Below are positions 2,737 through 34,411 of a stretch of 64,000 nucleotides of DNA, piece after piece. The notes beneath the pieces were generated by a model. That model had not been told where the DNA came from and made no database searches. It saw nothing but the letters and a program-made list of their open reading frames with translations. A program made the position numbers and the translations under genes. Source of the stretch: Marsupella aquatica (Eukaryota; Plantae; Marchantiophyta); NCBI GenBank assembly GCA_973895155.1, contig OZ316893.1, forward strand, positions 22,169,844-22,233,843, written 5' to 3'. Each line of letters opens with the position of its first letter. Within the stretch, counting starts at the first letter, position 1.

Positions 2737-2844
2737 GTCAATTTAATTAAAAGAAGAAACACTTGCATTAAGTAATGATAGTCAATTCAATTAAAACCAT
2801 GAAATTAGTGAAGAAAACCATGAGGGGAACACAAAACACCAGGT

Positions 2845-3836
2845 GTGCTGGGAAGCCCAATCGGATACAAGGTACGCCCTTCTCTTGCTGCCAGGTTCCT
2901 TCTAGAGAAAATCAGAAAACGATTATGTCACTGGACGAATCGTTGCTTAACTCTGGCGGGAAGGGCGGTTCTCCTAAAGCACGTTTTAAGAGCCATTCCT
3001 ACATACCACCTCATGACTATGGACATCCAGGCAACTGGCTACAAGGAACTTGAGAAAGTATGGAGAAGATTCCTATGGGGTTTGAATCCAAACAAAGGCA
3101 ACAAGAAAGCTCTGATTGCTTTGGAGGACATCACGACTAGCAAAGGAGAAGGGGGGCTGGGAATTCTCCCTTTTCAGGAGCAAGTGACAGCCCTCAAGAT
3201 GAGACACATGTCCAAGATGATTCAGGGGCAACCGGTGAGTGGATCAAGATTGCCCATGAGCTCCTAAGCAAAGGGCTGAGGAAAGGACCAGGAAAAAAAG
3301 AAAAAAAAGGTTGGTCCCCCACTGAAGCGCTGCTACTGAGTACTGACTGGATCAGTACTGGCTCCCCAATGTTGAGGGCTCCTACGTGGGTGGCATGACA
3401 AGAGAAAAAATGTGAATTTTACCTTTGGCAGAGGGGAATTACCGCACACACTCACGATGGAGCAGACTTTGTTGCTCTATGAGAGGGACCAGCAGGTGGA
3501 GACCAGTGAAAGGATCGCTCTGCGGAGATACTTGGCCAACCGTGGAGTGAAGGTGATCTCTGACCTATGGACTGCGCAACATGGATTGGGCGAACAAGGA
3601 AGAACTGCACCTAAAGGTCAGAAGCAACAAACACCGCGGACATAGGATCTTCCTTTTGTTCTACAAGCAACTGAGACAGTACCAAGGACTTAACAAGAAA
3701 CAGCTGCAGGACAGCGACAGATGGAAATGAAATTGGAAAGGGAAGAACAAGGGCTGGTCTTTCCCCAACCAGGTGTGGGGTAATTGTGGTCTGAATAGAG
3801 AGCACGACACCACCAAGATCAACAGGAGATGGGGAC
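2845..3836 (+). mobile_element. 5'-truncated, decayed L1-type LINE ORF2 (post-RT region), left half
   Basis: Translation LGSP...LTLAGRAVLLKHVLRAIPTY...RRFLWG...SKGEGGLGI is typical of plant LINE ORF2 downstream of RT. Frameshifts and stops follow. It ends at N-R-R-W-G at the Gypsy insertion point. Confidence 0.85.
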
Positions 3837-4399
3837 TGTCACACCATTCTAGGTAGTGTTAGAGTGTATTGTACTATCTAGATCCGTATGTTTGGTATGT
3901 GTGCTATATGAGCTGATAAGGTTCCATCAGGTTTGTGTGACAGGGTACTTCTCACTTATGAGGCATTGAAAGGTCATCTTTCAATGTTGAGCCTTGGAGA
4001 GAGAGGAGCTTGAGTGGCTATGGTGGCTGTGAGCTCCGCTTGTGTAACGTGGATTCCTTGAGTAGTGCAAGGTGAATTGGCTTGACATACGTGTGTGATC
4101 GGATCGGTGCGGGATCGATGGGGTATTGTTGACCGGGATCGTTGTGCCGATTGTTGAGCAGATTACATTGAAAGATCAGGACCTTCAAACTCTGTTGTGC
4201 GAACAAAAGCTCAGTCTGAGTTTGTTGTTGACGATTTGCAGTAGATCGAATCGATTGGAGCTGTTGTTTTGATCCATGGTACCTCGGATCGTGGAGTGGA
4301 CTGCCGGTATTTCGATTCGCTATAGTCGGTGTTGAGAAGTTTGTGCTTGATCTGTGCTGCCATTTGACGGACAGTATGCTGTTGTTCGCATTTTTGTGA

Positions 4400-4560
4400 A
4401 GTAGATCGGGCCTGCATCGTCATCGTATGCAGATCTGTTGGGCCGATTTGCTATTTTCGCAAGGGAAACAGCCGTGGATGTTGGTAGATCGGGCCTGCAT
4501 CATCGTCGTATGCAGATCTGTTGGGCCGATCTGTTGTTTTCGCAAGGGAAACAGCTACGG
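4400..4560 (+). repeat. ~83-bp-period tandem duplication in the element's 5' region
   Basis: GTAGATCGGGCCTGCATC..CGTATGCAGATCTGTTGGGCCGAT..TTTTCGCAAGGGAAACAGC occurs twice. Confidence 0.8.
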
Positions 4561-5547
4561 ATGTTGCTGAATCGTGCAACGACACTGCCTCTGTAGCGAT
4601 TTGCAGAACTTGCACGCCGACCTCTGCGTTTTGTTGAAGAAATAGAACTTTGAATGTTGTTGTTTTGGTAGCGGATGCGGGCTGCTGCTGATCAAAGCGC
4701 AAAGGCACTATCGCCTACGTGTTTGCCCATTTCACGAGGGCTGGATCGCGGATTCGCTACGACACGATAGCGTGTCGACGCGCTGCATTTCCGTGAAGGA
4801 AACTCGAGGCCGAAGTGTGGACGTTGCCGAATCTGGAAGTTGGATCCGGCGTAGCGAAGCATTGCTTGGCTCATCTCGGCGTTCAGAGGCTTCGAGGCAA
4901 CTCGTGGTTACTCGAGACAAGGGGCGTGAGGGCGAAGCAGGAGCGGGCGGGCCAGCAAGCTGGTACGTGAGGAGAATTGCAAGTGCTGCCATTTTGGAGT
5001 GGCAGATTTGGTGCATAATGACAAGTGAGAGGTCACCCATCCCAAAGCTATTCCTCCCCTCATGCGCTTAACTAGCAAGTTCCTATGTGGTGCATTGTAC
5101 ATGCTTCCTTCCACACTTGGTGTCCAAGGAATGAGGCCCTAGGGGTTTTATGCACTTTTGAATTCATCTAGATACTCTGTTTTAGCTAGTTTGCGATGGA
5201 TTCTTGAATATTTGACGCGGGATTCTTGAGGCCTATTATGAAGGCCCTACATTGAACTATATGCACATTATTTTCATGTATTTCTGATTGATTGGTGTGG
5301 AGAGTTGTGGTGAATCCTCTTCTTGTTGTTGGATCCTCTCCACACATGCTTCCTGTTTATGCGCCATGTTGGTTTGGCGTGGGCGCTTGATTCTATAGGA
5401 ATGATCCGGGTTTGCAACCGGACATTCTAGTTGTGCTACGTATTTCTCTCTTGGTGATGTTGGAGTGATGCCCAACACACATGGTGAGTGCTTGTGTTAT
5501 TGACAGGGACAGATTGCCCTTAGGATTAGCATATAGATTAGGTTAGG

Positions 5548-7230
5548 TTGGTCACCACAGATTATTCTGGTGCTGCTGGGTTACCCGATGGACGACGGAC
5601 CGGTTTCACTCGGAGTGGGGCACAGTTTTGGCCAACGACATTGGTAGCAGTCAGTAGTGCAGCTTCAGACAGTGATTCTGACGAGGACTCAGTGACCAGT
5701 TCTTCTCGTCATCAGGTGGTTGCATCTTTGTTGTGGGATACGGGCGAGATGTATGGGGCTACAAAGGGCCCACGACGATACTCTGGTGCAGTTGGCACAA
5801 TTGATCTGGATGACTTCATCCAGGAGTTTGATACGTGGTGCGATATGCAGACATTGCGTAACGCCACGTTGTTTACCCCTTTCATGGCATGGAAGGGATT
5901 ATTTTAGCATTTGGAGGGGCCACCCATGGATGACTACCATGAGTTCCGGAAGGCTCATTTGGTTGAGATTGAGGCATGGAGGCAGCATTGGTCGCCTAAT
6001 TACGTGTCCATCACCTATGGCACTAGTGCGGTTGCCCAACCCATTGCCACAGCTGCTGCTTCTTCTAGCAGCACTAGCCAAAGTGGCACACCATCCACCA
6101 CCAGCACTCCAACAGCATCCACCGCTACTCCTGCCGGTGTGATTGTGATAGGAACTGGAGTTGCGCCAGCATTTAACCTTGTGGTGGAATTCTTTGAGGT
6201 ACTGAAGCAGAACTATCAGGGTGTGAGAACTGATAAGTTGAAGGGTCTCCAGGAGTTCCAGCGCAAGACTGGAGAGAGTCTACGTGAGGCATACACTCGT
6301 ATGCGCAGATTGATCATTGTCACCAAGGGAGTGACAGAGGCTCAAGCAGTCCAATTTTGGTATGCAATTCTGGATAGAGAATTGCGACGTAGAGTGAGAA
6401 ATGTCACTCTGCTTAGGGATGCAGATCCCACATTAGCAGTTGTTTTTACCCTTTCTGAGCGCATTGAGCTCAATATGGTGAATGAGAAGGTGGTGACTTC
6501 CGGATTTGCCAAGGAACCACCAAAGGCTGCATCTACATCCACACCATAGCCTACTGCACGAAAGAGCCAGAGGGAGAAGCCTACTACACAAGAGTCTACC
6601 AGCCAGAGATCTATGCCCTCTTATGCTGGACAGCAGTCAGGATGTTGGACCTGTGGTGGGGATCATGCACAGAGATATTGCCCAGATCATAGAGGATCAG
6701 GGGGAGCATCAGCGCCTGATCAGCGATAGTGTGATCACTGTGGAGCTCCTCGACACACCAAGGATAGGTGTTTCTCACTCCACCCTGAGTTACGGAGGGG
6801 AGGATCCCATACACATGATCAGGGAAGAGGAGGCGGAGGTAGAGGTGGTGGACGTGGTCGTGGCATGCCATATGCAGGGAGACAGGGAGGTGACGCTGCC
6901 CCTGCTGTAACCATAGATCCAAAGGATGCTAAGATTGCTCAATTGGAGTAACAGCTAGCTGCCATGGCTAGTTTCTAGGTGAGACCTACTTCTGGTGATG
7001 GGGCATCTACATCCTATGGACCTTCCACATCCCATGGTCCTTCCACATCTTATGGAGCTGATGGAGACCTTACCACCATGGGATTCATGTGTGGCACTGC
7101 ACATATTGATGCATCAGCAGCATTGACACGTGGGGCAACCAAAGCTCTTGAGCCCCGAGGAGCAGTAGTGGAGTTAGATCCATAGAGGGGGGATGCACGT
7201 CGGCAGACAAAGCTTCCTCAGTCTTTTACA
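5548..7230 (+). pseudogene. gag: Gypsy gag (capsid plus two zinc knuckles plus RGG tract), with in-frame stops
   Basis: Frame 1 gives YSGAVGTIDLDDFIQEF...FQRKTGESLREAYTRM (retrotransposon gag), CWTCGGDHAQRYC (~6643) and CDHCGAPRHTKDRC (~6730), then GRGGGGRGGGRGRG. First ATG is at 5749. Stops occur at 5905, 6547, 6727, 6949, 6976 and 7183. Confidence 0.8.
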
Positions 7231-7599
7231 TTGTCAGAGACAGTTCAAACTGCCTCTATGAACCCGGTTCAGACAAACCCTGATGTGGATAAGTTGGTAG
7301 AATCAGGTAGTGATGCAGTAGGGATGACAGGTACCCTGCTGGGGGCGGCTACTGCCATGATACGCACCCCATTATTTCTAGCGACAGACATGCTAAACTT
7401 GGGAGTTGGTCCTGCAGAAGTGTTCAAATTGGTAGCTACACTCTGTGAGGACACTCCAGTGGTTGCTTCCCATGTAGAAGCAGCTTGTAGTGTTGAAGCA
7501 GTGAAGACCATGCCACCTACTACTACTAGTGAGACATGGCATGCAACAGCAGCAAGGTTGATGGATTTACCAGCACGCCCTGCATTTGAGAGGACTAGG

Positions 7600-8050
7600 T
7601 TTAAACCTAGTGTTGTGTCATTGGATAATCAAAGTGGTATCTTCCGATTAGTTGGGCCTTCTAGGGCAGTATACCAGCCAGAGAGAGTGTTACTAGATAC
7701 TGATGCTCAGCCCTTGATGTTGGGTAAGTCTGCCATACGTGGATTGGGATTGCGTCCAGAGGATTTGGAGGATTGTCCCTTTCCCATTCAGACTTCATTG
7801 GGGGGACCTACACCTACACAACACATTATCAGGGGACCTCTTGATTTGAGGATTCAGGAAGGTCATACCACAGATAGCTCACAGATACAGGCGCGAGCAA
7901 TTCTGACTAAGGCAGAGTCATATGATGTGTTGGTGGGATGTACAGTGCTCTACCCCATGGGATTTATTCTTGATTTTTGGGAGGAATCAGTGTCATATAG
8001 ACCTGATTGGCAGTCAGGAGATGCTCGATTGAGCAAATTGCTAGTGAGAT
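7600..8050 (+). pseudogene. Gypsy aspartic protease domain
   Basis: RVLLDTDAQ at ~7684-7710 is the D-T-G motif with G>D. The downstream YDVLVG motif is present. It is in the same frame as gag. Confidence 0.7.
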
Positions 8051-8400
8051 TTAGTGGACCTGTGGGAGGCCCTAAATCCACACCATTGTCTTTGGTAGCA
8101 TTCAGTGGTCTAATTGCTGGACCTGATGATTTGATTGAGGGTAATGCGCATGCAGCAGATGTTCCATCATTGGAGGAGTCTCATAAGGAGCACATCATGC
8201 GAGGATTACCTGTTGGCAGTGTTGTGCCACCAGTGTGGGGCACTGCACATGCCTTTCCACAGACAGCAGCATGATTGGTACATGATGCATGGCATCATGC
8301 TTTTACACCACGGTCAGGAGCAGAGCAGCCTCTTGCAGATGGACCTGTGACTCTTTCACCATTGGATACCACTCCTATTGCTTGGTAGTATCCACCGGAG

Positions 8401-9345
8401 GGTATTTGTTTGTTGGATCTTTTTGGTGGGATTAGCACTGGATTGGCTGCTGTTCTTCAGGCAGGAATTCCTGTGCGTCATTATTTGTATGTGGAGTCAG
8501 ATGAGACAGCACGGAGGGTCTCATTGTGACATGTGGCTATGTTGGTGGATAGATATCCATAGTTGCTACCAGTGGATGTTGTTCGTGGTTATCAGCATGC
8601 ACTACCTGCTGATATTTCATTGTTGGGGGTAGATCATCTGCATCGTGTTGGCCCCATTGATTTGGTGATTGCTGGTTGGCCATGTCAGGGCCAATCTAGA
8701 GCTGGCGTTGGGCATGGACTTCATGATCCACACTCTGCTTTGTTTTGGGAGATGTTATGGATGCTGCATCATCTCCAGTTACATCAGACATAGTCTCTAG
8801 CATACATTTTGGAGAATGTGCCATTGTTAGGTGATGATCGTAGTCGAATTGTTGCCAGTGTTGACCAGGTGAGGTCTTGGATTGGACCTGCATGCTGTGT
8901 TATTGGATGCTGCACGTGTGGGTTCTCGTGCACATCATCCACGCTTGTGGTGGACTAATTTGATCCCATGTGAGGTGCTGAAGCGCGTATTTGACAGTAT
9001 TCCATGCTCACCAGCCTTAGTGGTGGATGATGTTTTGGCTCCAGGGCGTCGTGCACAGGGTGTGACCCAACCTAATAGACCTCCATTGGCAATGGTCAAT
9101 GCAGTTGGGTGCCCACGTTGTGCATTACCCACTCTTGTAAGCCACTCTGCTTCATATGCATTCAGAGCAGGTGGCCCTGGACTTGTGTGGGACACAGCTC
9201 TCCAACAGTTAGTGGAACCTACTGTTGATGAGAGAGAGCGTGCTATGGGATTTTTGACTGGCACAACTGCAGTTGCCTCTATGTCAGAGGGTTTGCGGTG
9301 CCAGGTTCTTGGTCAAGCAATGGACCTAAATTGTTTGACTTGGAT
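8401..9345 (+). pseudogene. C5 cytosine DNA methyltransferase domain (DNMT3-like) inside the Gypsy polyprotein
   Basis: Motif I ICLLDLFGGISTG (8404-), motif II YLYVESD, motif IV IDLVIAGWPCQG (PC at 8680-8685), motif VI YILENV (8803-8820), motif VIII DAARVGSRAHHPRLWWTN, motifs IX/X ERERAMGF...QVLGQAMDL. It has three internal stops (8527, 8560, 8791) and one frameshift near 8890. Confidence 0.9.
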
Positions 9346-9589
9346 TATCAGCTTGGGAGTAGCTGAACAGTTGCGGATGCGCTCTGCTGGAATTATTGAT
9401 TGTCCCTTGCTGAGCTTGCGGTCCACTGAGACAGTACTGACCACAGCTGGGGGCGAGCAGACAATCCATGGACCTATGGTAGGATTGGCCAAGGCTGGAC
9501 AGATTGTTGAGCAAGAAGGGACTACTCAATCTACTACTAAATAGCAATCATCGGCTATCTCTTCTACCCTACAAAGAGATATTAGGGAT

Positions 9590-11100
9590 TTGGTGGAGAG
9601 TTGGGAACCACAGCTTGGCCCTAAGTTGACAGGGGAGGAGAGACGTCGCATGCATCGATTCCTAAAGAGTTACTGGAATTGTTTTGCATTTAGCATGAAG
9701 GATTTGGGGACATTAAAGGGTCCTGGTATTCAAATTGAATTGGCTAGTGATGCGCCAATCTTTTGTAGGCCATACCGTTACAGTGACATGGAGAGAGCTC
9801 TGATTCAAAGCAGAACTCAAGATTTGTTGGAGGCTGGATTGGTGGAGATTTCATATGGGGAGTATGCATCTACCACAATGATGTCAGCCAAGAAGGATGT
9901 GCATGGCAATTACACAGATAGAGGCATGTGTGGTGATTACAGACCCATTAATTGCCAGACAAAATTTGATAGATATGCCATGCCCACACCTGAGGAGATC
10001 TTTGATGTTGTGGGGCATGCAAAGGTTTTCAGTTCATTGGATCTGAGGGCAGGGTACCATCAGCTTCCAATTAGGCATGCTGACAGGTCCAAGACAACAT
10101 TCTGGGGGATTGATTCTTATGGCAAAGATCATTTGTATCAGTGGTTATTCTTACCATTTGGGTTGAAGAATGCACCAGCTGAGTTCCAGAGAGTCATGGA
10201 TCGAATCCTTGCAGGTTTGGATTTTGTCAGATGTTATATTGATGATATTTTGGTCTATTCTTCTACTGTGGAAGAACATCAACAGCACTTGCAGATTGTG
10301 TTGGAGAGATTGAGAGCACATGGGTTGAAGCTCCATCCTAGCAAGTGTAAGTTCTTCCAAGACCAGATTGAATATTTGGGCCACACTATATACCCAGGGG
10401 GATTGGGTGTACAGCAGACTAAAGTGGAGGCCATTACACATATTCCTTGTCCTACTGATGTGAGTAGAGTTCGTGCATTCTTGGGATTGGCGAGCTACTA
10501 CAGGAGGTATGTTAAAGGATTTAGCCAGCTTGCTAAACCTTTGACCATACTCACTAAGTTGGATCAGGAATGGATTTGGGGTGATGACCAGGAGCATGCC
10601 TTTCAGGAGTTGAAGCAAAGGTTGGCATCATCCCCTATTTTGAGAAGACCCATCTCAGGCAGACCATTTCAGCTACACACTTATTGGAGTGGAGTAGGAC
10701 TTGGAGTAGTGCTGACTCACAAGGATGATGAGGGGAATGAGTTTGTTGTGGCTTATGCCAGTAGATCAAACAATTCAGCAAAGGCTAAGTATAGCTCTTA
10801 TGAGGGAGAGTGTTTGGCAGCAGTGTGGGCTGTTGCACACTTTCGTTGCTACTTGTTTGGTAACGCTTTTACCTTGATCACTGATCATCAGCCTCTTAAG
10901 TGGTTAATGGAGTCTGACAAGCTTACAGGGAAGCTTGCAAGATGGGCATTGTTGTTACAGGAGTATGATTTCCAAGTGGTGCATAGGCCTGGAAAAGTGA
11001 ACTTGGATGCAGATGGATTAAGCCGCAATCCATGTACCAGTCAGCAGGATGAGACTGGAGCCAGATGGCATGATGAGTTAGATAAGGAGATGGTGCCAGG
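9590..11100 (+). pseudogene. pol: Gypsy reverse transcriptase plus RNase H
   Basis: RT motifs GDYRPIN, FSSLDLRAGYHQL, LPFGLKNAP and YIDD (10235-10246). RNase H motifs YSSYEGECLAAVWAV, ITDHQPL and DADGLSR. Confidence 0.95.
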
Positions 11101-11339
11101 ATGGCATGCATCTGCCTTTCTTTGTTGGGTGCCAGCATATAGTGGATCTATGGACTCTACCTCATTGGATGGAGTGGATGAGGAGTCTTCAGATGTGGAT
11201 GTTGGTGAGGTAACTTTTGGACAGCAAGATATTCACAATGATGTGAGAGTGTTGGAATATCTGCGCAGTGGTTCTATTGTTGGCAGTGTTGATGCCAAAG
11301 AACGTGACAGGGTTCTACAGAGAGCCAAGAGGTTTTGAT

Positions 11340-12480
11340 GGGAGGGAAACCATCTTTTGAGAGTACTGCATGATGGTAGGGTGTTGGTGGTACCAAAACC
11401 ATCACAACGAGTACATTTGGTGCGACATGCACACGAGGAGTTGGGGCACTTTGGTGTGAAGCGCACTTATAGCTTGCTGCAAACACAGTATTGGTGGCGT
11501 GGTATGCACACTCATGTCCAGCAGTTGATAGCTAAGTGTGTGGTATGTGATAGAGTGAGAACATTATTTAATGCTCCCACTCCCCAGTTGCACCCGTTGC
11601 CGATCATAGGTTTGGGATATTGTTAGATTTTGGATTTTGCTGGTCCATTACCTTTTACCCAACGTCATAATCGGTATGTTTTGGTCATGGTGGAGCACTT
11701 CTCCAAGTGGATTGAGCTAGTGGCGTTGCCAGATAAAGCCAGTGAAGGAGTTGCTGCTACATTTTTGGATCGTGTACTCAGTCATTTTGGAGCACCAGCT
11801 GAGGTGTTGACTGATCAGGGAACTGAGTTCCGTGGAGAGTTTGAGAGTTTGTGTGAACAAGCTCTGATTGATCATCGTACTACCTCTCGTGATCATCCTG
11901 AGGCAGATGGATTAGCCGAGAGAGTTGTACAAACTATAAAGAGAGGATTGCGTAAATATGGCTTGCAGGTTGGTCATCTGGGAGAATGGGATCTCCAGCT
12001 ACCTTGGTTAGCTATGGGCTACCGTTTCAGTCGGCAAACATCACTTGCATCCTTTTCACCTTACTTTTTGCTCTATGGTAGAGAGCCAGATTTGCTAGCA
12101 GCTATTCGTCGTGATGCTGCACCAGTTGTGAACTTGGATGATCCTGATGTTTGGGTCAAGGTGTGTTCAGAGAGAGCACGGGTATTTCATAGAGTGATGC
12201 CCATGGCTTTTGACAACCTTGCCATTGCCCAACATCGTGATGCTTTGAGGTATGCCACTATTTGTGGAGGAGGTTACCGTGCAAGCATTCGATGATTTCA
12301 TCCTGGTGATTATGTTTATTTGTAGCAGACAGCACCCACAACACTTGATATGACCGCAGGCCGGGCAATCTTACGTGTGCGTGAAGTGTTGCCTTCTGGT
12401 GTCCTAATGTTGGAGGGACGCGATGGTATGGTTTGGAAGGATCATGTGCGCAACTGTGCACCATGTCACCTTCCCAACAT
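11340..12480 (+). pseudogene. Gypsy integrase (HHCC plus DDE), with stops
   Basis: HAHEELGHFG...CVVC zinc-binding domain. The DDE core is DFAGP, LTDQGTEF, DGLAER. Stops at 11624, 12293 and 12323. Confidence 0.92.
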
Positions 12481-12524
12481 TGATGGTACAGTAGATCCAA
12501 GCTTGGCACATGTTTGTGCTGGCT

Positions 12525-12670
12525 TGAAATGTATGTTGTGTGGATCTGCTCAGGGAGCAGCTACTATGTTGATTTGTGATAAGTGTTCTAGAGGATGGCA
12601 CATGTCATGTTTGACACCACCATTGCAAATGATTCCTAGTGGATCATGGTTGTGTCCTCAGTGTCGGTGA
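12525..12670 (+). CDS. PHD finger (C4HC3) at the integrase C-terminus
   Basis: KCMLCGSAQGAATMLICDKCSRGWHMSCLTPPLQMIPSGSWLCPQCR* lies in the same frame as integrase. Confidence 0.92.
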
Positions 12671-12976
12671 AGCCGACTAGTTATCATTTGTGTTCTCTTG
12701 GCAGATATGGATTGCAGGTAGGTGATCGATGGGGCTCACTTGCACCCGGCCTCCTGATCTTCACACCTAAAACGGTGTATATCAACCTTGTAGAACTCAT
12801 GGCTAGCTAGAGTTAGCTCCCAGCTAGGGGGGCGATTGTGGGTTTTGGACATGTGTGGACATGAGTTCCACTTGTATTCCATTCTCTTGTGTTTGTGATG
12901 TGGCAGTGTGACTATGTTTGGATGTATGTGACAAGCGATGTATGTTGTATAGCGATGTGTATGCGCACGACAGGAC

Positions 12977-13583
12977 AGACGATCACTGCTGACCATTGGT
13001 GCCAACTGTGGAAGAAATTGTGGGGGGGCTGGACCCTGCCGAAGGTGAGGTTCTTCATGTGGCGCCTACTAAATCATGGGTACTTCACTAATGGCAGGGG
13101 CAGTCACTGGGAGTGTCCGATGGACTCTGCCCGCGTTGCAAGGAGTGCTTCAAAAACAATGACCACCTCTTCTACAGCTGCAACAAAGGGAAAGACCGAT
13201 GGCAGGAAGTTCAGAGATTGATCCAAGGTGCCAGTGGGCTGGAATGCCACAACACCACACTGTACGAAGCCATTACCCGCGCTATTTGAAACCACAAGAG
13301 GAAACCAGGATCACTGATCCTGATCATGGAATTATGTGAAAGCATTTGGAAAGAAAGGAATGCTGCTGCGTACTCCCATTTCCTTGGTCGGCTCCCGGGA
13401 TGGGTGGTCCTCACACAGACTGATCACCACCTGAAAACCATGTTGACTACTAGCACCTCTGCCAAGAAAAGCAAGCAACTACGCAATGTCACTATTGACC
13501 AACTCAAGGTGATTCTTCTCCCTTGGGAGCAGACTGAGAGCCCAATTTCCATTAACACTAACATTGATGATGAACACAGCTAA
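12977..13583 (+). mobile_element. LINE ORF2 C-terminal zf-RVT region, right half of the split LINE
   Basis: WCQLWKKLWGGWTLPKVRFFMWRLLNHG, a frameshifted CxxC...H..C, and SIWKERN motifs. Confidence 0.85.
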
Positions 13584-14150
13584 GCAAAAAGTGACCTCCC
13601 TGAGGACTTCCACGTCGCTGAAGGAGATCAACCAGGTGCAACAGAGTGGAGAAACTCAGCACAACCCCAAGAAGACTAGAGAGAACTACTAGGACAAAGA
13701 TAAGATTAGAGATAGAGACAAGACCCAACAGAATAGGAAGAACAAAACTGAGAGTAGGACCAGACAGGGTAGGAGAGGAATCACTCGGGATCTAGAGAGC
13801 GCTATTACCAAATGGCTGCTCAAGATCACTTGGCCTGATTAGACGGTCGGTGCTTTTGGCGCTGTGTGTTTTGGGGTCTTGTTCTGCCCTCCTGGTGTGT
13901 CTTTTGCTCCCTAGTGTGGTGGTTGTTCATTTTGTGGCTCTTGTGCAGGTCAATGTTTACACCAGGATACTAAGAATATTCTTGAATTGAAGGAATGTTC
14001 AAAGTTCTATATTTATAGGACCCTAGAAAATTTCGACAATTATTTATTTATAACCCAACCCTTATGGTACTAGTGTACTAGGTTAATTGATGTAATGCTC
14101 CAGGCACATATGTGAAGAGCTTGTAATTTTTTATCTAAAGTAGTGCTCTA

Positions 14151-14397
14151 TCGATGTTTTTAGGCCTTGGAGCCCCTAAAATTAAAAAAAATTAATTATT
14201 TTTCAATTCCTATAAAGTTGGAATATTCTAAAAAATTGGTTATATGGACCCTAATGTTCTTATAAGTCTAAAAATTTGATTAAAAAAATCCTATTGTTTT
14301 TCTCAGAAAATTCATAAGTCTTCCCTTTGAACCAATAAAATGACCCTATACTTCGTCGCATGTGATGTGTAATTTTTGTGGAAGTGAAACCCCTGAG
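14151..14397 (+). mobile_element. hAT-like MITE, copy lacking a visible left TIR
   Basis: Colinear with 24914-25173. It ends in AGTGAAACCCCTGAG (right TIR). Confidence 0.7.
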
Positions 14398-15371
14398 AGT
14401 GAGAACCGAGAGTTGGTTGTTAGAGTCGGGGTAGTCTGATCGCCGCATGTTGGGACAACCTTGGGACAAGCTTTAGGACAAGCTACGCTATTTGGGCCAT
14501 GAGCATGTCCTGGGGGCAGGGCGGTCAGTCAGTGATGGATAGGTATGAGGGGGAACACGGGCTTCACCCAAGGAAGGAGCTATTCTGGACAAATATTGGG
14601 TGTCGGTTTTGGTTTCGGCTTATGGCATTGGGAGGACCTATCGCTGATCTACTTACCAATGTCTGTTGAGCTTGAGTTAGGATGCTAGACTTGGGAGATC
14701 TAGATCCTGAGAAGTTACTTATCGGAGTGCTTGGCTGCTTGTGCAGATTGTGAGGACCATTGAGAGACGGTCATGCTAGACAGTGAGTGCGGCTTCGTAT
14801 GGCCGGGAGGGGTCGCAAGTGGTGTTGAGGGCACCAACAAGTTGCTTGCTCGAGGAGTTCCGTGGAGGCGTCCGGGCACCAAAGGCACTTAGGCAGAGGT
14901 GTTGGGATTGGTGAGGGCGCTGGGTGGCAAGGTCCATCACTTTTATCTAGGACACCGCCCTCATGAACTAGCTGAATATCCATGCGTTGCCCGGAAGATG
15001 TGATGTCAAAATGTAAGAACAGTTGTTGTGTAAAAGATTTAGTTATGTAAAACAACCCACATAAGAGGTGTTTTTAAGGTTTCATTGCTTAAAAGATATC
15101 ATTGCATGAAAGATATTGTAATAAAAGACATTGGTGCATAAAAGATGTTGTAATTTAATCTCAGTCTATCCTTGGTGCAGAAATTGTCACCATGGTGAAA
15201 ACTGACCGGACTGTTTATCGTAGTTTGTGGGTGTGGAAATCTTGTCATTTTGGCTGGGTTGTTCTTCTAACAAAAATGTTGTCATTTTGGTCAATGTTGT
15301 TATTGTGGTTTTTTGTTGGGGAACAGAAAGGTTAGAATATACTAGAGATGCAAGATGGGGGACGGTGGCCA

Positions 15372-17356: not shown

Positions 17357-19191
17357 CGTTATCAGCACAAGACTCACTGAGGCTGAGCAAGGAGGATAAG
17401 AAATTTTTTTTTCATAGAGCCATGGCGAATTGAGTAACGATTGAGAATTTTAACATCATTGAGTACGAATAACATCAGAATTCGTAAGGACAACAAGGAG
17501 GCTGATTGAATTGCATAAGGAAACTGTCACCTGCAGAATTGATACAGAGAAGAAGAAGAGAAAGAGAACTCATAAGGACGAAGATTGCAGAAGATTGCAG
17601 AAAGAGAATGATAAGGACACCAGACTAAAAAGCGAAATGATACTGAGGATCGGAGGATCAAAGATTGAAGAACCGAGGCATCGAGGATAGAGACATCGAG
17701 GAGAATCGATGAGAACCAAGAGAAGGACAGAAAAAAAATTAAGGAGGCGAGAGCAATCGATAAGCACAGGAGCAAAGGAGATAGAAGAATACAAACCATA
17801 GGAGATTGCGAAATTACTGATCGAGGCTGTCGGAGACGAAGCCTAAGAAATCGATGTTGACAAGCCAGATTGGGGAATCCCCTTTTCTTCCAGCGCTCGT
17901 CCCTGCCGTTTAGCCACTATCGAGAGCAAAGCCACGGACCAAAACGGAGACTACGTAAAGAGAGCTCGAGATCCGAAGAGGTGAAGAGGCAAAGAGATGA
18001 AGCCAACTATTGGAGGCGAAGCAAAGGCTACGCGAGCCTTCAGAGAACCACCAGAGAATAAGACGATTTTGGAAGACCGATGCTGAAGCGACAGACGCTC
18101 GGCGAACCTCAACTCGGACCATTGACGAAAGACACGGAATTAAGAAAAGTGTTGGACACAAAACTCGCCAACATCCGACTTCGCCCACAACACAATTCAA
18201 ATGGCGCAGGCAGCAGCGCCATTGGGATGATCAAAAAGAGCACGAGTGCTCAACAAGCGGACCCTCAATCCCAGTACACCGAAGCACTGATCGTCAACCT
18301 CAATCACCGAGCACTGATCGTCAACCTCAGTGCTTGCCAGGCTTTCTAAATGATTGAGATGAGCAAAGCCGCTCGTCAGGACTAGCCAGACCTCCCGGGA
18401 AGATTGTCAAGTTGTATAACCAAATAACAAGAAAAAGGTTTCCTCTCAACCGATCGGGAGCTCGTGAACTTGAGAAGAGACCTATTACCTCAAGTATGGC
18501 GAATTGAGAAGGGGAAAAGGAGGCCAAAGGAGACGAGCGAAGCCATTCATCGTTACCGGTGCAGCGTTAACATCGAAAGGCAGCCCGATGGAGCTTCTGT
18601 AGAAAAGGCGAGGAAGGCGCTCAGGAAAGTCACAGCGAGAATCGGTACCTTGAGAATCGGGAAGAAAATATCAACGAAACAACAAGTAAAAAGGAGATTC
18701 GAAGGGCAGCAGAAGTGCGCAAAGGGGCCACCAAGAGGGGAAACTGCGCCACATCTACTCAACCAAAACATCGACAAAACGTCGAAGAAATTCCACAACC
18801 GCTAAGTGCACGCTCCATAACCGCAAATAACTGCAAAACCCTCGTTAATTGCAAACTCCATCAAAGAAATTACAGTTCCAAAGCATAATGTGCACTTAAC
18901 CAGGTCACGAGTAAAGAATCACCCATAACTGCACAAACTGCACAATTTAACAAAGGAAATAGCAATTACAAAGGAAACCTTGCAGTTATACATTCACAAA
19001 GAAAACCAACTTAATAAGTGCAAACCCTAAATTCTGCAAAAACCCAAACATTCTTGCTTTACTCGCCAATGACCTAGATTGATCTCCTCAACCCTTTCTC
19101 CACCATTGCATGCGGCAAATGTGCATTGTCTTTTGACTATATATATTATATATAAACACGCACACCACCGCTGCACGCCAGGACCTTAGAG

Positions 19192-22100
19192 ATGACCAAC
19201 CTTGAGAAACTCAACTTCCCCGCCCTGGAAATAGATGGCGGCAACTACCTAGAATGGTCCATGAACTTAAAAGAAAACCTAACCTCGCTAATCCTACTCC
19301 CTGCGATAGGGCTCGCTCAACCCATCCTTGCCGGCGAACCCCAACCTGATCCATTAACTAAAGCCAACGAATCGAAAGCCCTAGTATTCCTGAGATGTCA
19401 CATCCATAGATTCCTACAGAGACAATACATGCACCTTTTGACCCCTCGGGAACTATGGACAGCCCTACACACCCGATTCGACCACCAGAAACTGGTCGAA
19501 TTACCTAGAGCCAGACAAGACTGGCTCAACCTGCGGGTCCAAGACTTTACCTCAATTTCAGCCTACAATAGCAAACTCTTTAGAATAACCTCAACCCTCG
19601 CACTATGTGGCGAGCCAGTTACGGACAAGGATCTGCTAGAGAAGACCTTGTCGACATTTCATTCATTGAATGTGTGGCTATCAACACAGTATCGAAACAT
19701 GAAGTTCGGGCAATACTTCGAGCTCATAGCCCACCTTCTAGTCACAGAGAGAAACCAAGAACTCCTTTTAGTTAACTCTAGAAAACGTCCTGCGGGCACA
19801 CTGCCCTCAGGATCACAGAGTGAAACACATCTTACCGACACCGCTGAACCCTCCACATCAAGGCAGGGCATTAAGCGCAGTAGGAATGGCAACCATAGAA
19901 ACAACCCAAACAGGGGGAGTTTCTTTAACCAACGCCCACAACACAATTTCAGACGGTCCTTTAGTGGACGTGGAGGACGCGATGGACGCGGCGGACGCGG
20001 AGGACGAGGTGGACGCGGTGGACGCGGCGGTGGTAGAACATATAACAACAACCGTAGAAATGATTGGTCACAATCCCAACCACAACGAGAACGCCCAAAA
20101 TGCCATGCATGCGGCATGACCAACCACCTAGCCAGAAATTGTAGAATCCCGCAACACCTTAAAGAGCTATATCAACAATCCCTCAGGGACGGACAAACCT
20201 CTAGGGCATCACCCCGTGAAACCCACGGGGCGTTTATGGAGTCTAGCGACCCATTCCAAGACTTTTCAGACCTACCTGCCCAACCCGAGGCACACTTAGT
20301 GGCAAGTAGCTCCGCTACACCAGATTTAAATAGCCCAAGCACATGTATTATCGACAGTGCGACCACGCACACTATCCTCAGGGATAGGCACCTTTTCCAC
20401 AAGATTACACCCTCACGTAGACCCCTGACCACTATAAATGGCCCTAGCCAAATAGAAGAAGGCTTCGGCCCAGCTTCCATTAGACTACCGCAGGGTACAG
20501 CGATTCACATAGAATCTGCCATTTTCGCCCTGAATGCAACCCGTAATCTCCTCAGTTTTAGAGATATACGAGCAAATGGACTACATGTCCAGACGGGCGA
20601 CACAAGAGACCAGGAAGTGATACACTTGGTTAAAAATACCCCTACGGGGAAAATCATTAAAGAAACACTTTTCTCGTATCCTTGCAGGTTTTATGTAACA
20701 CATATTGAATGCCTGCATAACAATGCCCAAACAAGTGAATTGCCCGCGCTTTGGCATGCACGCCTCGGCCACCCCGGCCAATCAATGCTAACCAAAATAA
20801 TTAAGAATTCAAGTGGCATTCCAATCAATACACGCCACATCCCAGCTAGCACCCCATGCACTGCATGCTCACGTGGCAAATTAATAACAAGGCCCACGGC
20901 ATCAAAATTGCCAACCAACATACCCAAATTCTTGGAAATAATCCACGCCGATGTTTGCGGGCCAATTAACCCACCGAGCGGACCATTCCGCTACTTTATG
21001 GTATTAATCGACGCATCAACTAAATGGTCAAATGTGACACTGCTTTCAACGAGGAACATGGTTATACCTCGTATTTTGGCGCAAATCCTGCGCATGAAAG
21101 CACAATTCCCCGACCACCCCATTAAGACACTAAGGGTAGACAATGCAGGGGAATTCACATCCGAAACATTTGATGACTTTTGCACATCACTTGGCATAGA
21201 CGTACAATACCCTGTACCTCACGTGCATTTTCAGAACGGATTAGCTGAAGCGGTCATTAAACGCCTTCAGTTAATTGCACGCCCATTACTAATGCAGTCA
21301 AAACTCCCCGTCTCAGCATGGGGACACGCCATATTACAGGCTAATGCATTAATCCAATACCGCCCATCGACCTTTAATACCTATAGCCCATACCAAATTG
21401 CTAATGGTATTAAACCTGACCTATCACATCTTCGTTCATTTGGATGTCAAGTAATGGTCCCCATTACTCCACCCAAACGAACCAAGATGGGACCCCAACG
21501 ACAGTTGGGGATATACATCGGATTCGACTCTCCGTCCATAATCCGATATATAGAGCCTATAACTGGCGATGTTTTTAAATCTAGATTCCTAGATTGCCAT
21601 TTTGACGAACATGTTTATCCACAGTTAGTAACCCCCAAACACCCACAACCACCTTTGGAGTGGGAAAGACACTCGCCATTTTGGCAAGACCTTAGAACGA
21701 ATCAAGGGGAGAAAGAAGTTCAAAGAATTTTGCAACTCCACAAGATTGTGGAAGAACTTCCTGACGCTTTCGTTGACACATCACAACTTACCCGCTCACA
21801 TATTCCAGCTACGAGAGCATCTGCCCGCATCGAATTATCAAATGAGCCAGCAAGTACATCCCAACCTCGTGAAAAACGAGGTAGACCCTTGGGATCAAAA
21901 GATAAACAACCACGAAGGCGTGGTTCATCTATACCACCTTCACCTGATGTTGATCATACCGAATCTACATCTCATGAAGAGATCTCTATCCACTACGCAC
22001 ACACAGGTGCGATGTGGGATAGAAATACTACTTCAATAGATGACGCTTTTGCATTAATGGTGGCAACACATATTACTGACGATACACCAGAACCAATATC

Positions 22101-22572
22101 CATCTTAGAATGCCAAAACAGACCAGATTGGCCTGAATGGCAAAAAGCTATAAATGGAGAATTAGATTCCCTACTCAGCAGACACACTTTTGGCCCAGTC
22201 GAGCCAACACCACAAGACGTACACCTAATTGGCTACAAATGGACATTTGTCCGCAAAAGAAATGATAAAGGCCAAGTTGTACGCTATAAAGCACGTCTGG
22301 TAGGGAAAGGATTTACCCAACAACCAGGAATTCATTACGATGAAACTTACTCACCGATTATGGATAGCACAACATTCCGATATCTTATCGGATTTGCCAT
22401 TTTCCATCAACTACAGATGCGACAACTGGATGTTGCAACTGCATATTTATATGGCACTTTAGACACTTGTCTATACATGCGATCACCTCCCAAGTTGGAG
22501 CAACGACGCCGAGCTTTAGCTCAAGGCGCTAAATCGCATATTCCATATTTACATAAGATTATAACACAATGA
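19192..22572 (+). CDS. Ty1/Copia (Bianca-like) gag-pol, truncated within RT
   Basis: Uninterrupted 1126-aa ORF: N-terminus NLEKLNFPALEIDGGNYLEW, RGG repeats, CHACGMTNHLARNC knuckle, protease CIIDSATT, WHARLGHP..CTAC, integrase HADVCGP/RVDNAGEF/NGLAE, RT YKARLVGKGFTQ..QLDVATAYLYG. Homology stops near 22490, before YVDD, RNase H and the 3' LTR. Confidence 0.93.
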   Translation: MTNLEKLNFPALEIDGGNYLEWSMNLKENLTSLILLPAIGLAQPILAGEPQPDPLTKANESKALVFLRCHIHRFLQRQYMHLLTPRELWTALHTRFDHQKLVELPRARQDWLNLRVQDFTSISAYNSKLFRITSTLALCGEPVTDKDLLEKTLSTFHSLNVWLSTQYRNMKFGQYFELIAHLLVTERNQELLLVNSRKRPAGTLPSGSQSETHLTDTAEPSTSRQGIKRSRNGNHRNNPNRGSFFNQRPQHNFRRSFSGRGGRDGRGGRGGRGGRGGRGGGRTYNNNRRNDWSQSQPQRERPKCHACGMTNHLARNCRIPQHLKELYQQSLRDGQTSRASPRETHGAFMESSDPFQDFSDLPAQPEAHLVASSSATPDLNSPSTCIIDSATTHTILRDRHLFHKITPSRRPLTTINGPSQIEEGFGPASIRLPQGTAIHIESAIFALNATRNLLSFRDIRANGLHVQTGDTRDQEVIHLVKNTPTGKIIKETLFSYPCRFYVTHIECLHNNAQTSELPALWHARLGHPGQSMLTKIIKNSSGIPINTRHIPASTPCTACSRGKLITRPTASKLPTNIPKFLEIIHADVCGPINPPSGPFRYFMVLIDASTKWSNVTLLSTRNMVIPRILAQILRMKAQFPDHPIKTLRVDNAGEFTSETFDDFCTSLGIDVQYPVPHVHFQNGLAEAVIKRLQLIARPLLMQSKLPVSAWGHAILQANALIQYRPSTFNTYSPYQIANGIKPDLSHLRSFGCQVMVPITPPKRTKMGPQRQLGIYIGFDSPSIIRYIEPITGDVFKSRFLDCHFDEHVYPQLVTPKHPQPPLEWERHSPFWQDLRTNQGEKEVQRILQLHKIVEELPDAFVDTSQLTRSHIPATRASARIELSNEPASTSQPREKRGRPLGSKDKQPRRRGSSIPPSPDVDHTESTSHEEISIHYAHTGAMWDRNTTSIDDAFALMVATHITDDTPEPISILECQNRPDWPEWQKAINGELDSLLSRHTFGPVEPTPQDVHLIGYKWTFVRKRNDKGQVVRYKARLVGKGFTQQPGIHYDETYSPIMDSTTFRYLIGFAIFHQLQMRQLDVATAYLYGTLDTCLYMRSPPKLEQRRRALAQGAKSHIPYLHKIITQ

Positions 22573-23972: not shown

Positions 23973-24555
23973 GTCCAGATTTAATATTGACAGGAGGAAT
24001 AAAAGGAAACAATAGCCCCCAACCTCTTGTAAAGCCACCTAAATCCGAAAGCAGAGTCTTCTTCTAAGCCAGAATTGCACAATTATTTGATAACCTTGCC
24101 ACTAGTAATCTAGCTCTTGGTTGGACAACAGCACACTCAGAGAGGCAGGCTCTTGAGTTCTTGCAAAGCAAACTTCAGCTATTTCCACTCATTACAATCT
24201 CAAAAGAATAAAAAGAAACACTAGCCCCCTCTTAGAAAGCCACCTAAATCAGAAAGTACTTTGTTCTGAGCCAGATTTGCACAATTATTTGATAGCGCTG
24301 TCAGTAGTAATCTAGCCCGTGGTTGGACAACAGCAGCTTAACAGAGGTAGGCTCTCAAGCTCTTGCATAGCCAGCCCATTTTACTCATTATAAGGTCCAG
24401 ATTTAATCTCAGAAAGAATAAAAGGAATCAATGGCACCCAGGTCTTGTAAGGCCACCTACAGTAGATCACAAAGCAGTTTGTTCAGCCAGAATTGCACAA
24501 TTATTCGATAGAGCTAGCAGTGATAATCTATAGTAGCTCCTGTTTGGACAACCAA
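23973..24555. repeat. Degenerate tandem repeat, 3 copies of ~200 bp
   Basis: Recurring GAATAAAAGG..., GCCACCTA, GCCAGAATTGCACAATTATT, TAATCTA and TTGGACAAC blocks. Confidence 0.8.
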
Positions 24556-24876: not shown

Positions 24877-25173
24877 CTCGGGGGTCTCACTATATGGGGA
24901 CCTCCCCATCGCCTGCGACGTTTTTAGGGCTCGGACCCCCTAAAATGTAAGAAAAAAATTTTATTTTTTAACCCCTATAAAGTTGGAATATTCTTGGAAT
25001 ATTCTAAAAATTGGATTAAAAAGGCCCTAATGTTCTTATAAGTCTCAAAATTGAATTTAAAAGACCCTATTGTTCTTCTACAAAAATTCTTAAGTCTTCC
25101 CTTAGAACCAATAAAATGACCCTATCCTTCGTCGCACGTGATATGCCATTTTTGTGGAAGTGAAACCCCCGAG
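24877..25173 (+). mobile_element. hAT-like MITE, complete copy (297 bp)
   Basis: 15-bp TIRs CTCGGGGGTCTCACT / AGTGAAACCCCCGAG (1 mismatch). Perfect 8-bp TSD TAATCATC (24869-24876, 25174-25181). Confidence 0.9.
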
Positions 25174-31174: not shown

Positions 31175-34100
31175 ATGCGGTGCATGGGCAGATTGTGGGT
31201 GGTGCTGCTGTTATGGAGCTCTCTACTCGGGTCGTTCGGTGCTCAAGGTCCGTTCCCTCGGCTCATTCTCTCGCAGCCCTGCATTCTTCCCCAATCTTCT
31301 TCTTTCCCAAATTAGCGTGTCCCTCTTGTAGGTCCAGCGCTGTAGAGCAATCATGGGAATCCAAAGGATTGAAAATGCGTACTGGGCAAATTGATCCCCG
31401 AATGATTAAATTAAAAACCATCGAACAGGATGAGTGTGACATCGTAAGAGTAGTAAAGTATGAATCTCGGCGAAGGGCAGGGTGAGGACGGGGTAAGCGT
31501 GTTGTCTGAATCTGGGCGAAGGGAAGGGTGATGACATGCTTGAATCAGTTTGGAAGATTGAGAGCAAGCTGTTCCGGATTACAGTTGTGGATCAAGAAAG
31601 GACCATCCGAGGAATGTTGAGGGGTCAGAGGTCGCAATCCGATGCGGATGAGTCCCGCTCAGAAGCAACGCATTCAATTAGATAGCAGGCCCACAGTTGT
31701 AGCGCAGGAGGGGGCGTCTGTAAGGGCATGCTGGTGACGTCAAGGTGGTAGTCAGAGTTGATAGTATGCGTAGGACTAGTGATGCAAAGGAAGAACAACA
31801 CATTCATTGGTCATACTCTTAAAATCTTATCGTAGTTGTCAGATTGGGAGGTGCTTGTTCTGTAATTCCTCATGGCATGGATTGCAACGCAGCTGGGATC
31901 GTAGCATTGGCCATCACGCCAAACTGGCCGTGCCACTTGGCACGGTGACATCGGGCTTTTTGGGACTAGATTGAGTTGAAAATTTGGGCTGTTCGATCCA
32001 GTCCAAGTGTGAGTGTTGTCGTTCATGCTCCTGGGGTGTCGCGTGGTGCCCACAGCCAAGCACTGGCAGATTGCACATGGATTCTAATTGATAGGTGAGC
32101 GATTCTTGGGATGTGATCCGGTATGATGTGGTTGAAAGTACACTTGCTCAGCTGCGTGGGAGTTATGGGAAAGGGTGGACTCGTCACGTAAGTGCTCAGA
32201 GGGGACTCCCGAGTCCCGACAGACTCAGACGGAATTCGACTGCTACTAATCAAGTGCAAAGAATTTAGCTAAAGATTGAGAACTAGATTAGAATTTTCTC
32301 CTCAGACATGAGAGACCTCGAGACCCGGGACCTCGTTTGTAGTGATGCATTTATGTATCCGTTTGCGACGGTACACATCCCTCTTCGCGTTTAGTATTGT
32401 AGTCTGCTACTGTACGTGTACGTTGGAGAACAAGATTTCGTCAGACTCGAATGGTTTTTCTCATTGGAACGGACAGTGAACGGGCATGAAACTTGCTTTT
32501 GAGTTCAGGAAGTACGTGTAGAGAGAGATATTGACATTTGGAACAAATTGGGCATGTTTTCTACCAGGACATCAACAAGGTCAAGGGGAAGATAATTGGC
32601 CATGGTGGGGGGGGTCCCATCCTCCAGGAGTGGGAGACCATCCGCCTGGAGTGGGCCATCATCCGCCTGGAGTCGGGCACCATTCGCCTATCAAAGATGC
32701 CATCTGGGGCTTGCAATCATGGGCAAAGGTCATCACGAAGGACCCACTAGGCATCACGAAGACATGGGTGGGCGATAATCCCTGCTCTAAGGACTATCCG
32801 TGGACGGGGGTTTTCTGTGACACTGACAATACAACAGGGGAGCCAGTTGTTGCTGCCATTGACCTGAATCATGCACAACTCGGTGGGATTATCTCGCCAG
32901 AGCTGGGCTGGGTCGAGACTCTCGCGCTCTTCCACATCAACTCCAATGAATTCGAAGGCACCATCCCGTCAACGTTCAAGAAACTGGGGCTCCTCTCGGA
33001 ACTGGATGTCAGCAACAACTTACTGTCGGGACCGTTCCCCAGGGTTGTTCTACGGATGCCAATGCTTTTTTATTTGGACATCCGCTTCAACAGATTTACG
33101 GGACATCTTCCTAAGGAGGCTTTTGATCTTCCCCTCGATGCGTTTTTCGTGAACGATAATTATTTCGAGGGCACCATTCCGGAGAACTTTGGCATGTCTC
33201 CTGTCTCGGTGGCGGTGTTGGCGAACAACTACATCTCTGGAGGAATTCCCAAGTCAATTGCCAACATGTCGAGCACGTTGAACGAGTTTGTGTTCCTAAA
33301 TAATAAGCTGGATGGCGCACTTCCCTCTCAGTTCGGCTACCTCGACCAGTTGGTGCTTTTCGACGTGTCTTTCAACAATCTGAGCAGCCCGCTGCCCTCC
33401 ACTATTAAGAACTTGCAGAATCTGGCTCAATTTGACATCGCCCACAACAGTTTTTACGGAACTGTGAGCGGGGGCTTGTGTAAACTTCCCAGTTTGGCGA
33501 ATGTGACGATCTCGGACAACTACTTTCTGGGTGAGGATCCATCTTGTGCTCAGCTCGCTTCAAGGGGTGTAATTTTCAATGCCCAAGGAAATTGTTTCAG
33601 TGACTCCGCTTCCTTTCAGAAAGACAACCAGACTTGCACCGCCTTCTACAATAATCTCTACCCACCTTCCCCACCCCCTCCACCTCCTTCTCCCCCGCCT
33701 CCATCTCCTCCTCCTCCATCCCCACCTCCGCCATCGCCTCCTCCACCATCGCCTCCTCCCCCTTCACCGCCCCCACCATCTCCTCCTCCCCCATCCCCAC
33801 CCCCACCATCTCCTCCTCCCCCATCCCCACCCCCACCATCTCCTCCTCCCCCATCTCCGCCCCCTCCCTCCCCACCTCCGCCATCTCCTCCTCCGCCATC
33901 TCCTCCTCCACCATCACCTCCTCCGCCATCTTCTCCCCCTCCATCTCCTCCTCCGCCATCGCCTTCACCGCCACCTCCTTGTCCTCCTCCTTCTCCACCT
34001 CCGCCACCTCCTTGTCCTCCTCCTTCTCCTCCACCACCAGCATTGCCTCCATGTTCTGATTTTTTGCCACCACCACCACCTGAATGGTCCAACCCTCCAC

Positions 34101-34411
34101 CTACATGGCAATACCCCACACCAACGTGGACTGCTTCGCCTCCGCCGCCATCCTGGGAAAACCCTTCTCCTCCACCCCCAATTTGGCACGAGCCTTCCCC
34201 TCCGCCCCCTACTTGGGAAGCCCCTCCTCCTCCAGACGATTGCCCACCACCATCACCGCCTCCTCCATCTCCACCGCCTCCTGTATATGCACCGCCACCT
34301 CCTTGCTCAATGGGTCCAGGGGAGAATTGGCCCCCATATTTGCCCCCACCTCCCCCATGGGTGGTACAGTCACCTCCTTATGGTGCTCCTTCTCCACCCA
34401 GCCACTACTAA
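31175..34411 (+). CDS. LRX: Leucine-rich repeat extensin (LRX/PEX family), 2 exons: 31175 (or 31184)-31247 and 32568-34411
   Basis: Exon 1 encodes the signal peptide MGRLWVVLLLWSSLLGSFGAQ with a phase-1 GT donor that matches the phase-1 AG at 32566-32567. Exon 2 has WVG..C...GVFC, VAAIDLNHA, LALFHINSNEF, DIRFNRF LRRs, a Cys-rich linker, (SPPPP)n extensin and a terminal Tyr. Confidence 0.92.
33660..34040 (+). repeat. (Ser-Pro4)n coding repeat of the extensin domain
   Basis: 15-bp C-rich units encoding SPPPP about 20 times. Confidence 0.95.

Follow-up and report, generated by a model that had tools for sequence, protein, structure and literature searches.

Why does a transposon retain an enzyme of the class that silences it, a question that has stood since 2018, and how would it produce that enzyme? 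Both points are raised by a stretch of 64,000 nucleotides from Marsupella aquatica (contig OZ316893.1, positions 22,169,844 to 22,233,843 of the forward strand), referred to here as the window. Positions 3837-12972 of the window are a dead member of a high-copy family of Gypsy-type retrotransposons in a liverwort, in which translation and Pfam matches reveal, on the plus strand, the series Gag, protease (PR), DNMT3-like DNA methyltransferase (DNMT), reverse transcriptase (RT), RNase H (RH), integrase (INT) and PHD finger. From the comparison of this copy with its relatives, we propose, with a probability of roughly 0.6, that the DNMT ends the Gag-PR open reading frame (ORF) and that RT, integrase and PHD are probably produced solely when a ribosome occasionally reads through a conserved UAG-CAR-YY stop. 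The copy is laid out as follows.

3833-3836, plus strand: left target-site duplication GGAC, identical to the four bases after the right end.
3837-4164, plus strand: terminal repeat A (A1), first letters TGTCA, placed by family-contig joints from 4154/4164 to 12835 and from 12972 to 3835-3839.
4165-5748, plus strand: 5' leader, including an 83-bp tandem duplication at 4401-4566 (sequence).
5749-7600, plus strand: Gag, containing two zinc-knuckle-like motifs (~6640-6775), and a linker behind it, with six premature stops (translation and stop list).
7601-8030, plus strand: aspartic protease, its catalytic motif changed in this copy (translation).
8389-9370, plus strand: DNMT3-like C5 cytosine methyltransferase, motifs I-X in unrearranged order (motifs, Pfam, fold of a relative).
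9542-9550, plus strand: in-frame stop with its context, TAG-CAA-TCA, the end of ORF1 (Gag-PR-DNMT) (junction comparison).
9545-12670, plus strand: ORF2, with four premature stops (Pfam).
9935-10390, plus strand: RT, within ORF2 (Pfam).
10577-10966, plus strand: RNase H, within ORF2 (Pfam).
11399-11899, plus strand: integrase, within ORF2 (Pfam).
12530-12664, plus strand: PHD finger, within ORF2 (Pfam).
12826-12834, plus strand: polypurine tract AGGGGGGCG, immediately 5' of repeat B and shared with related loci.
12835-12972, plus strand: terminal repeat B, last letters CACGACA, placed by loose contig ends with diverse flanks at 12972 and by similarity to B of related loci; A2-B2 are missing in this copy.
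12973-12976, plus strand: right target-site duplication GGAC (sequence).

The preliminary description of this locus had treated the DNMT as a domain of Pol, sharing one frame with RT and integrase after a frameshift at ~8890. The DNMT and RT do share a frame, but they are separated by the stop at 9542-9544, which is conserved in relatives, and in the window subfamily the DNMT is the last domain of the Gag-PR ORF rather than a part of Pol. The frameshift at ~8890 is present and is specific to the window copy; the extra bases are missing from most family contigs (run X1), and the relatives read in a single frame there.

At 29 DNMT-RT junctions that include the RT start, TAR-CAR-YY was found in 27 (20 TAG, 7 TAA), and the two exceptions are a junction with a second stop right behind the TAG and a frameshifted copy. 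In the Sphagnum-like subfamily (24 junction rows), TAG or TAA is followed by CAA-CCC or CAA-CCT, and the junctions of the four other subfamilies read TAG-CAA-TCA (the window), TAG-CAG-TTA (the related loci L025 and L027), TAG-CAA-TCA again (L029) and TAG-CAA-CCA (L036). All five subfamilies keep the stop, although its spacing from the motif IX-X probe varies (59, 81, 112, 115 and 129 codons past the probe end). The second codon after it encodes Ser, Pro or Leu, with variable flanking bases, suggesting that the rule lies at the nucleotide level. The full UAG-CARYYA with an in-frame downstream ORF is present in the window, L025, L027, L029 and L036, and the Sphagnum-like rows have CARYYC. In plant viruses, UAG-CARYYA serves as the type I readthrough signal, and tobamoviruses, benyviruses and pomoviruses carry it before an in-frame polymerase (PMC5382211); the present, putative site differs in that the carrier is a retrotransposon and that one subfamily has CARYYC.

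In L025, two unbroken ORFs (1369 and 1047 aa) lie in the same frame and are separated solely by TAG-CAG-TTA. When 10 Sphagnum-like copies were aligned, the only conserved in-frame stop from Gag to integrase was this one (position 12284 of L003). Many homologues among the database proteins, including intact ORFs of 1230-1450 aa, terminate soon after motif X without RT, and many free-standing RT-RH-INT-PHD proteins were also found; a K. nitens-like ORF (P0066, protein only) terminates 27 residues past motif X. We also considered that the DNMT is an ordinary Pol domain and that the stop at 9542 is decay of the window copy. This is the case in a sister family (the L040-L080 type) and in some gene models from Closterium and Klebsormidium, in which the DNMT runs into RT, and the window copy does have 15 other premature stops; however, we consider it highly improbable because the stop is the sole conserved one in the Sphagnum-like alignment and the sole one in the intact L025.

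Readthrough at the conserved stop is, in our judgement, the probable step, even though several observations weigh against it. Of the 29 junction rows, 24 come from one subfamily and some represent one insertion seen twice, and for the window's own host family the evidence that the stop is conserved is indirect, coming from a pair of Logan proteins in a single cluster, one of which (P0001) terminates at that very residue. The sister family, from the same metagenome set, has no conserved stop, and 13 of its 22 same-frame loci are stop-free from Gag through the DNMT to RT; the stop is therefore not required by every such element. A stimulating hairpin after the stop had no support above background at 11 junctions (z -0.3 to -3.7, background means about -1), and z values of -2.5 or lower occurred in 3/48 and 6/48 background windows. 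In addition, the Sphagnum-like CAA-CCC has five of the six motif bases with an in-frame ATG directly after it, L027 has an ATG at codon 5, and a GTG is nearby in L025 and L029, so that translation could restart there. In such a scheme, the stop would be the true end of Gag-PR-DNMT and RT-integrase would be made separately from the nearby AUG or GUG, by re-initiation or from a spliced or shorter RNA, with the methyltransferase still at Gag level. The ATG lies two codons past the stop in nearly all Sphagnum-like rows, and several free-standing ORF2 proteins start with Met at that place. Nevertheless, we find a restart, the main rival to readthrough, unlikely, as CAR-YY right after the stop is kept in five subfamilies though it would precede the start codon, and as the first Met after the stop comes 116 codons on in L025, within RT, and 35 codons on in the window.

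If expression proceeds by readthrough, a long-form copy would be transcribed and most ribosomes would yield Gag-PR-DNMT, while a minority would continue into RT-RH-integrase-PHD. Gag-pol readthrough occurs in murine leukaemia virus (MLV), and CARYYA is used in soybean SIRE1. With a stop that is likely leaky, the DNMT would far outnumber the copying enzymes. Released by the protease inside the particle, where it would be present at about capsid level, the DNMT would methylate newly made cDNA, either ahead of integration or during it. Conservation of the stop suggests that selection acted on how much of the enzyme is made relative to RT. At the other end of the polyprotein, the PHD of the window element matches those of CHD4, DPF3, ATXR5, KDM5 and PHF21A; CHD4, DPF3, KDM5 and PHF21A are readers of histone H3, and the integrase-borne PHD would bind histone H3 tails.

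Would the product be an active methyltransferase? All the C5 motifs named at the outset lie, as described, between protease and RT: LDLFGG (8413-8430), GWPCQ (8674-8688), ENV (8812-8820), AHHPRLWWTN (8930-8959), ERERAMGF (9230-9253) and LGQAM (9308-9322). Pfam places DNA_methylase (PF00145) above its cut-off in the window copy (E 3e-7), followed in Gypsy order by RVT_1, RT_RNaseH, Integrase_H2C2, rve and PHD, which answers the profile check proposed with the preliminary description. The window Gag matches the N-termini of the Marchantia proteins P0004 and P0008, and the Asp_protease_2 match of L025 is weak (E 2e-4, below cut-off). The suggested affinity to DNMT3 was borne out by both sequence and predicted fold. 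The DNMT of an intact relative matches DNMT3A best (E 1.5e-11, compared with 9e-4 for DRM and 5e-4 for HhaI), and its predicted structure (pLDDT 91) is most like DNMT3A/B (TM 0.82 to the target); by these measures, the methyltransferase is DNMT3-like and its predicted fold is complete. The catalytic Cys, the Glu and Asn of ENV and the Phe-Gly of motif I are invariant in 8/8 aligned rows, which include liverwort, moss-like and Klebsormidium-like elements. In the window copy itself, the DNMT is broken by stops at 8386, 8527, 8560 and 8791, by the frameshift at ~8890 and by a changed motif VIII; the decay of the whole copy amounts to 15 premature stops besides the junction stop, the one frameshift and the altered protease and motif VIII.

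The ratio of nonsynonymous to synonymous substitution (dN/dS) in the DNMT was 0.14 for L029 vs L025, 0.12 for L029 vs L027, and 0.11 and 0.18 for the two window halves vs L003, whereas RT gave 0.05-0.06, so that the DNMT value is about twice that of RT. The DNMT domain is under purifying selection in these divergent pairs (0.11-0.18); higher values in close, decayed pairs are in line with decay after the death of the element. Read depth of the family is the same over the DNMT as over Gag and RT, and the domain has the same place in relatives from several bryophytes and algae. Together with the dN/dS values, this indicates that the DNMT has long belonged to the element under selection, rather than having been inserted later, in agreement with the preliminary description. 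An independent insertion of the DNMT was also sought and rejected, as no DNMT-skipping joint was seen among the best-supported joints (15/219 inspected). Depth over the element exceeds that of the flanks by more than 1000x (run X1), although depth is not a copy number, and contigs of four runs mapped to the region show a very abundant family. We are practically certain that this is an old, selected family carrying a DNMT.

We lean slightly towards an active enzyme that acts on the element's own cDNA. Two points count against this. The DNMT of KnitGypsy-Dnmt3, an element of Klebsormidium nitens, showed no activity in yeast, a result that its authors call inconclusive (PMC5890265). The element ORFs are poor in CG (0.30, vs 0.63 outside), a depletion that methylation by the host would explain just as well and that cannot separate self from host methylation. 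The DNMT might instead be kept for another role: it could bind or coat nucleic acid inside the particle, or act in trans by methylating the DNA of the host or of competitors. Capsid-level amounts would suit a structural role, and the inactivity of the Klebsormidium domain and the twofold higher dN/dS relative to RT point the same way; the invariant catalytic residues, the complete DNMT3-like predicted fold and the methylation of CG by two related Symbiodinium DIRS-Dnmt3 domains (PMC5890265) argue against it, and we rate another role as slightly less likely even than a restart after the stop.

The ends of the element also depart from expectation. The span first given, 5548-12670, proved too short: the element extends over 3837-12972, begins with TG, ends with CA and has GGAC on both flanks, and a search at both ends of the window copy found no pair of long terminal repeats (LTRs), nor do the related loci show one. 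By eye, no TGG-start tract that could serve as a tRNA primer-binding site follows A1 in the window or in 7/7 related loci. Family contigs join the end of A directly to where B starts, and B to A across two intervening letters, and they have diverse flanks at 12972, and the A1 start of the window copy is repeated in 25 related loci. A complete A1-coding-B1-A2-B2 layout was found in L033, L041, L042, L047 and L054. A short A-coding-B form with its own duplication is seen in L018, and the window copy is of the short form too; recombination between B1 and B2 most likely removed its A2-B2 together with the internal junction. Among nine copies with both ends, the target duplication is an exact 4 bp in seven, has one mismatch in one and is absent in one. 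The polypurine tract of the window also precedes B1 in L003, L025, L033, L041, L042, L047 and L054.

The B1-A2 junction reads GACA-nn-TGTC, where nn is GC, AC, GT or TC, and the GC form is a perfect palindrome; the AC and GT variants would match the expected decay of methylated CHG. The plus strand likely begins at the polypurine tract before B, and the internal palindromic junction (GACA-GC-TGTC) would template both of the ends to which integrase attaches, in place of the LTR-plus-tRNA scheme. Within a single copy, A1 and A2 have 5-13 private variants in common (7/7 copies), as expected if a single template serves both in each jump, although gene conversion could give the same pattern. It speaks against this scheme that B1 and B2 have only 0-1 private variants in common in one of two families, and we hold the chances of junction-templated ends to be evenly balanced. 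A symmetric circle model was dropped: if either circle junction were usable, a permuted form with B ahead of A1 would be expected, and it was found in 0/25 loci (22 distinct sites).

How far does the element type extend? The search for relatives of the same order, which had been suggested at the outset, found them in several bryophytes and algae. The named relatives are Marchantia polymorpha (many gene models), Calypogeia fissa, Sphagnum jensenii, S. fallax and K. nitens; those from Closterium are DNMT-RT models, and Riccia sorocarpa and a Coleochaete transcript match the RT part only. No vascular plant was among the named matches listed, where names are sparse and absence is not implied. The Marchantia models Mp4g09160, MpVg00370, MpVg00540, Mp5g06330 and Mp5g06860 (~1280 aa) cluster as ORF1 of the family (P0004, P0084, P0091 and P0092), and several of them are on the V chromosome. 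M. polymorpha has apparently intact ORF1 copies, such as Mp4g09160, annotated as a hypothetical gene. Two family members filed publicly under cyanobacteria-like names (P0445 and P0029) are probably mis-binned. Viral contigs searched for the methyltransferase gave weak phage-type matches only.

A DNMT profile search returned at least 624 clusters at 50% identity (E up to 1e-30). Among the best 150 of the 624, RT/RNase H precedes the DNMT in 71, 20 are DNMT-integrase, 14 are protease-DNMT or DNMT-RT, and 45 contain the DNMT alone. The order RT-RNase H-DNMT-integrase-PHD is complete in 33 of these 150 (P0177, P0050, P0069 and others), one of which is a Scenedesmus sp. pol; the text consulted of the 2018 Klebsormidium paper makes no mention of chlorophyte hosts (PMC5890265). 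In trees from quick searches, with SH-aLRT support only, elements of this order form a 14-row clade (100) in the RT tree, and this sister clade suggests either a shift of the DNMT to another place in the polyprotein or two separate captures of it. The DNMT tree puts the window in a 58-row clade (96) with all five stop-bearing subfamilies, and the stop-free family and K. nitens fall outside. In the RT tree, it falls in a 42-row clade (95) that includes two K. nitens and five Closterium rows, and the DNMT-bearing K. nitens P0382 lies outside at an open fork; rows L003, L018 and L047 have long branches, probably from frameshifts in those copies. Separately, P0430 is a Gypsy-type polyprotein in which a Dam-type adenine methyltransferase lies between protease and RT, and in which RNase H and integrase are separated by a PHD; by its sequence, a different methyltransferase class occupies the same polyprotein slot.

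The preliminary description overstated the novelty of the retrotransposon type, since a DNMT-bearing Gypsy element, KnitGypsy-Dnmt3 of K. nitens, was already published (de Mendoza et al. 2018, PMC5890265). The two share Gypsy RT-RH-INT domains, an unrearranged Dnmt3-type DNMT under purifying selection and DIRS-like A-coding-B-A-B repeats, the latter at the level of the liverwort family, as the window copy is A-coding-B (PMC5890265). They differ in that the paper has the DNMT in the Pol ORF, whereas in the window subfamily it ends the Gag-PR ORF at a conserved stop (PMC5890265); a DNMT in the RT-bearing ORF is matched only by the sister family. The host here is a liverwort, and the DNMTs lie in separate sub-clades. 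The text of the paper, as far as consulted, contains no account of termini, target duplication, polypurine tract or junction palindrome for KnitGypsy-Dnmt3 (PMC5890265), and its supplement text has no mention of KnitGypsy, readthrough, Marchantia or Sphagnum. Literature searches, with most subscription journals outside their reach, found neither the conserved readthrough-type stop and end anatomy nor land-plant copies of the element type, although Repbase and the 2018 figures may hold the architecture. As far as these sources go, the element type is known from K. nitens, and the conserved stop and the end anatomy appear to be the new parts.

With canonical Ty3/Gypsy elements, the window element shares the PR-RT-RH-INT order, Ty3 as the best solved relative of its RT-RH, a DDE integrase, the TG...CA ends, a polypurine tract and a short duplication. 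It differs by having no LTR pair or tRNA primer site, by the extra DNMT, by the PHD at the integrase end and by the position of the translational break, which follows the DNMT and does not fall between Gag and protease. The split direct repeats A1-B1-A2-B2 are shared with the PAT/Ngaro tyrosine-recombinase retrotransposons, but the liverwort family has a DDE integrase, a 4-bp duplication and a C5 rather than a Dam-like methyltransferase (PMC4157794). No tyrosine recombinase was matched by Pfam in the element, which has rve and Integrase_H2C2 instead.

A wider picture, which we offer tentatively and consider rather doubtful as a whole, is that of a green-lineage clade of integrase retrotransposons, from chlorophytes to liverworts and peat mosses, that replicates without LTRs or tRNA priming and restores its ends through an internal palindromic junction; in the branch of the window element, a leaky stop would raise the DNMT to a capsid-level dose, and the particle would deliver a pre-methylated copy with a load of DNMT3, steered by the PHD. 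If true, such a transposon would set its epigenetic state itself upon insertion and could be a mobile source of de novo methylation in bryophytes. The apparently intact ORF1 in M. polymorpha, a genetic model with methylation mutants, makes the question testable. For an integrase element, ends made of split repeats imply that reverse transcription and integration follow a course unlike the textbook LTR scheme, and annotation based on LTR pairs would overlook such elements, while their ORFs can inflate DNMT counts in bryophyte genomes.

The element sits inside a decayed LINE (long interspersed nuclear element), and the window contains further repeats and host genes as follows.

2824-3832, plus strand: decayed sequence left of the insertion, which we take to be the LINE from its LINE-like translation; no Pfam match.
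12977-13583, plus strand: decayed LINE right of the insertion, zf-RVT match (E 8e-4, below cut-off).
14129-14500 and 24938-25173: two occurrences of a second high-depth repeat.
19156-22569, plus strand: open 1138-codon Copia ORF (Gag, protease, integrase and RT start), cut off within RT.
23991-24530: three degenerate tandem units of ~202-216 bp.
32522-34445, plus strand: host gene for a leucine-rich repeat (LRR) protein with a proline-rich, extensin-like tail.
42363-43112, plus strand: host gene for ribophorin I.
47767-49742, minus strand: host gene, glyoxal oxidase-like.

The ribophorin I exon is 84% identical to that of Calypogeia fissa, 65-66% to those of Riccia and Marchantia and 51-55% to the other matches; it marks the genome as that of a liverwort, most likely of the leafy kind, which confirms the land-plant origin that the preliminary description had given to this genome.

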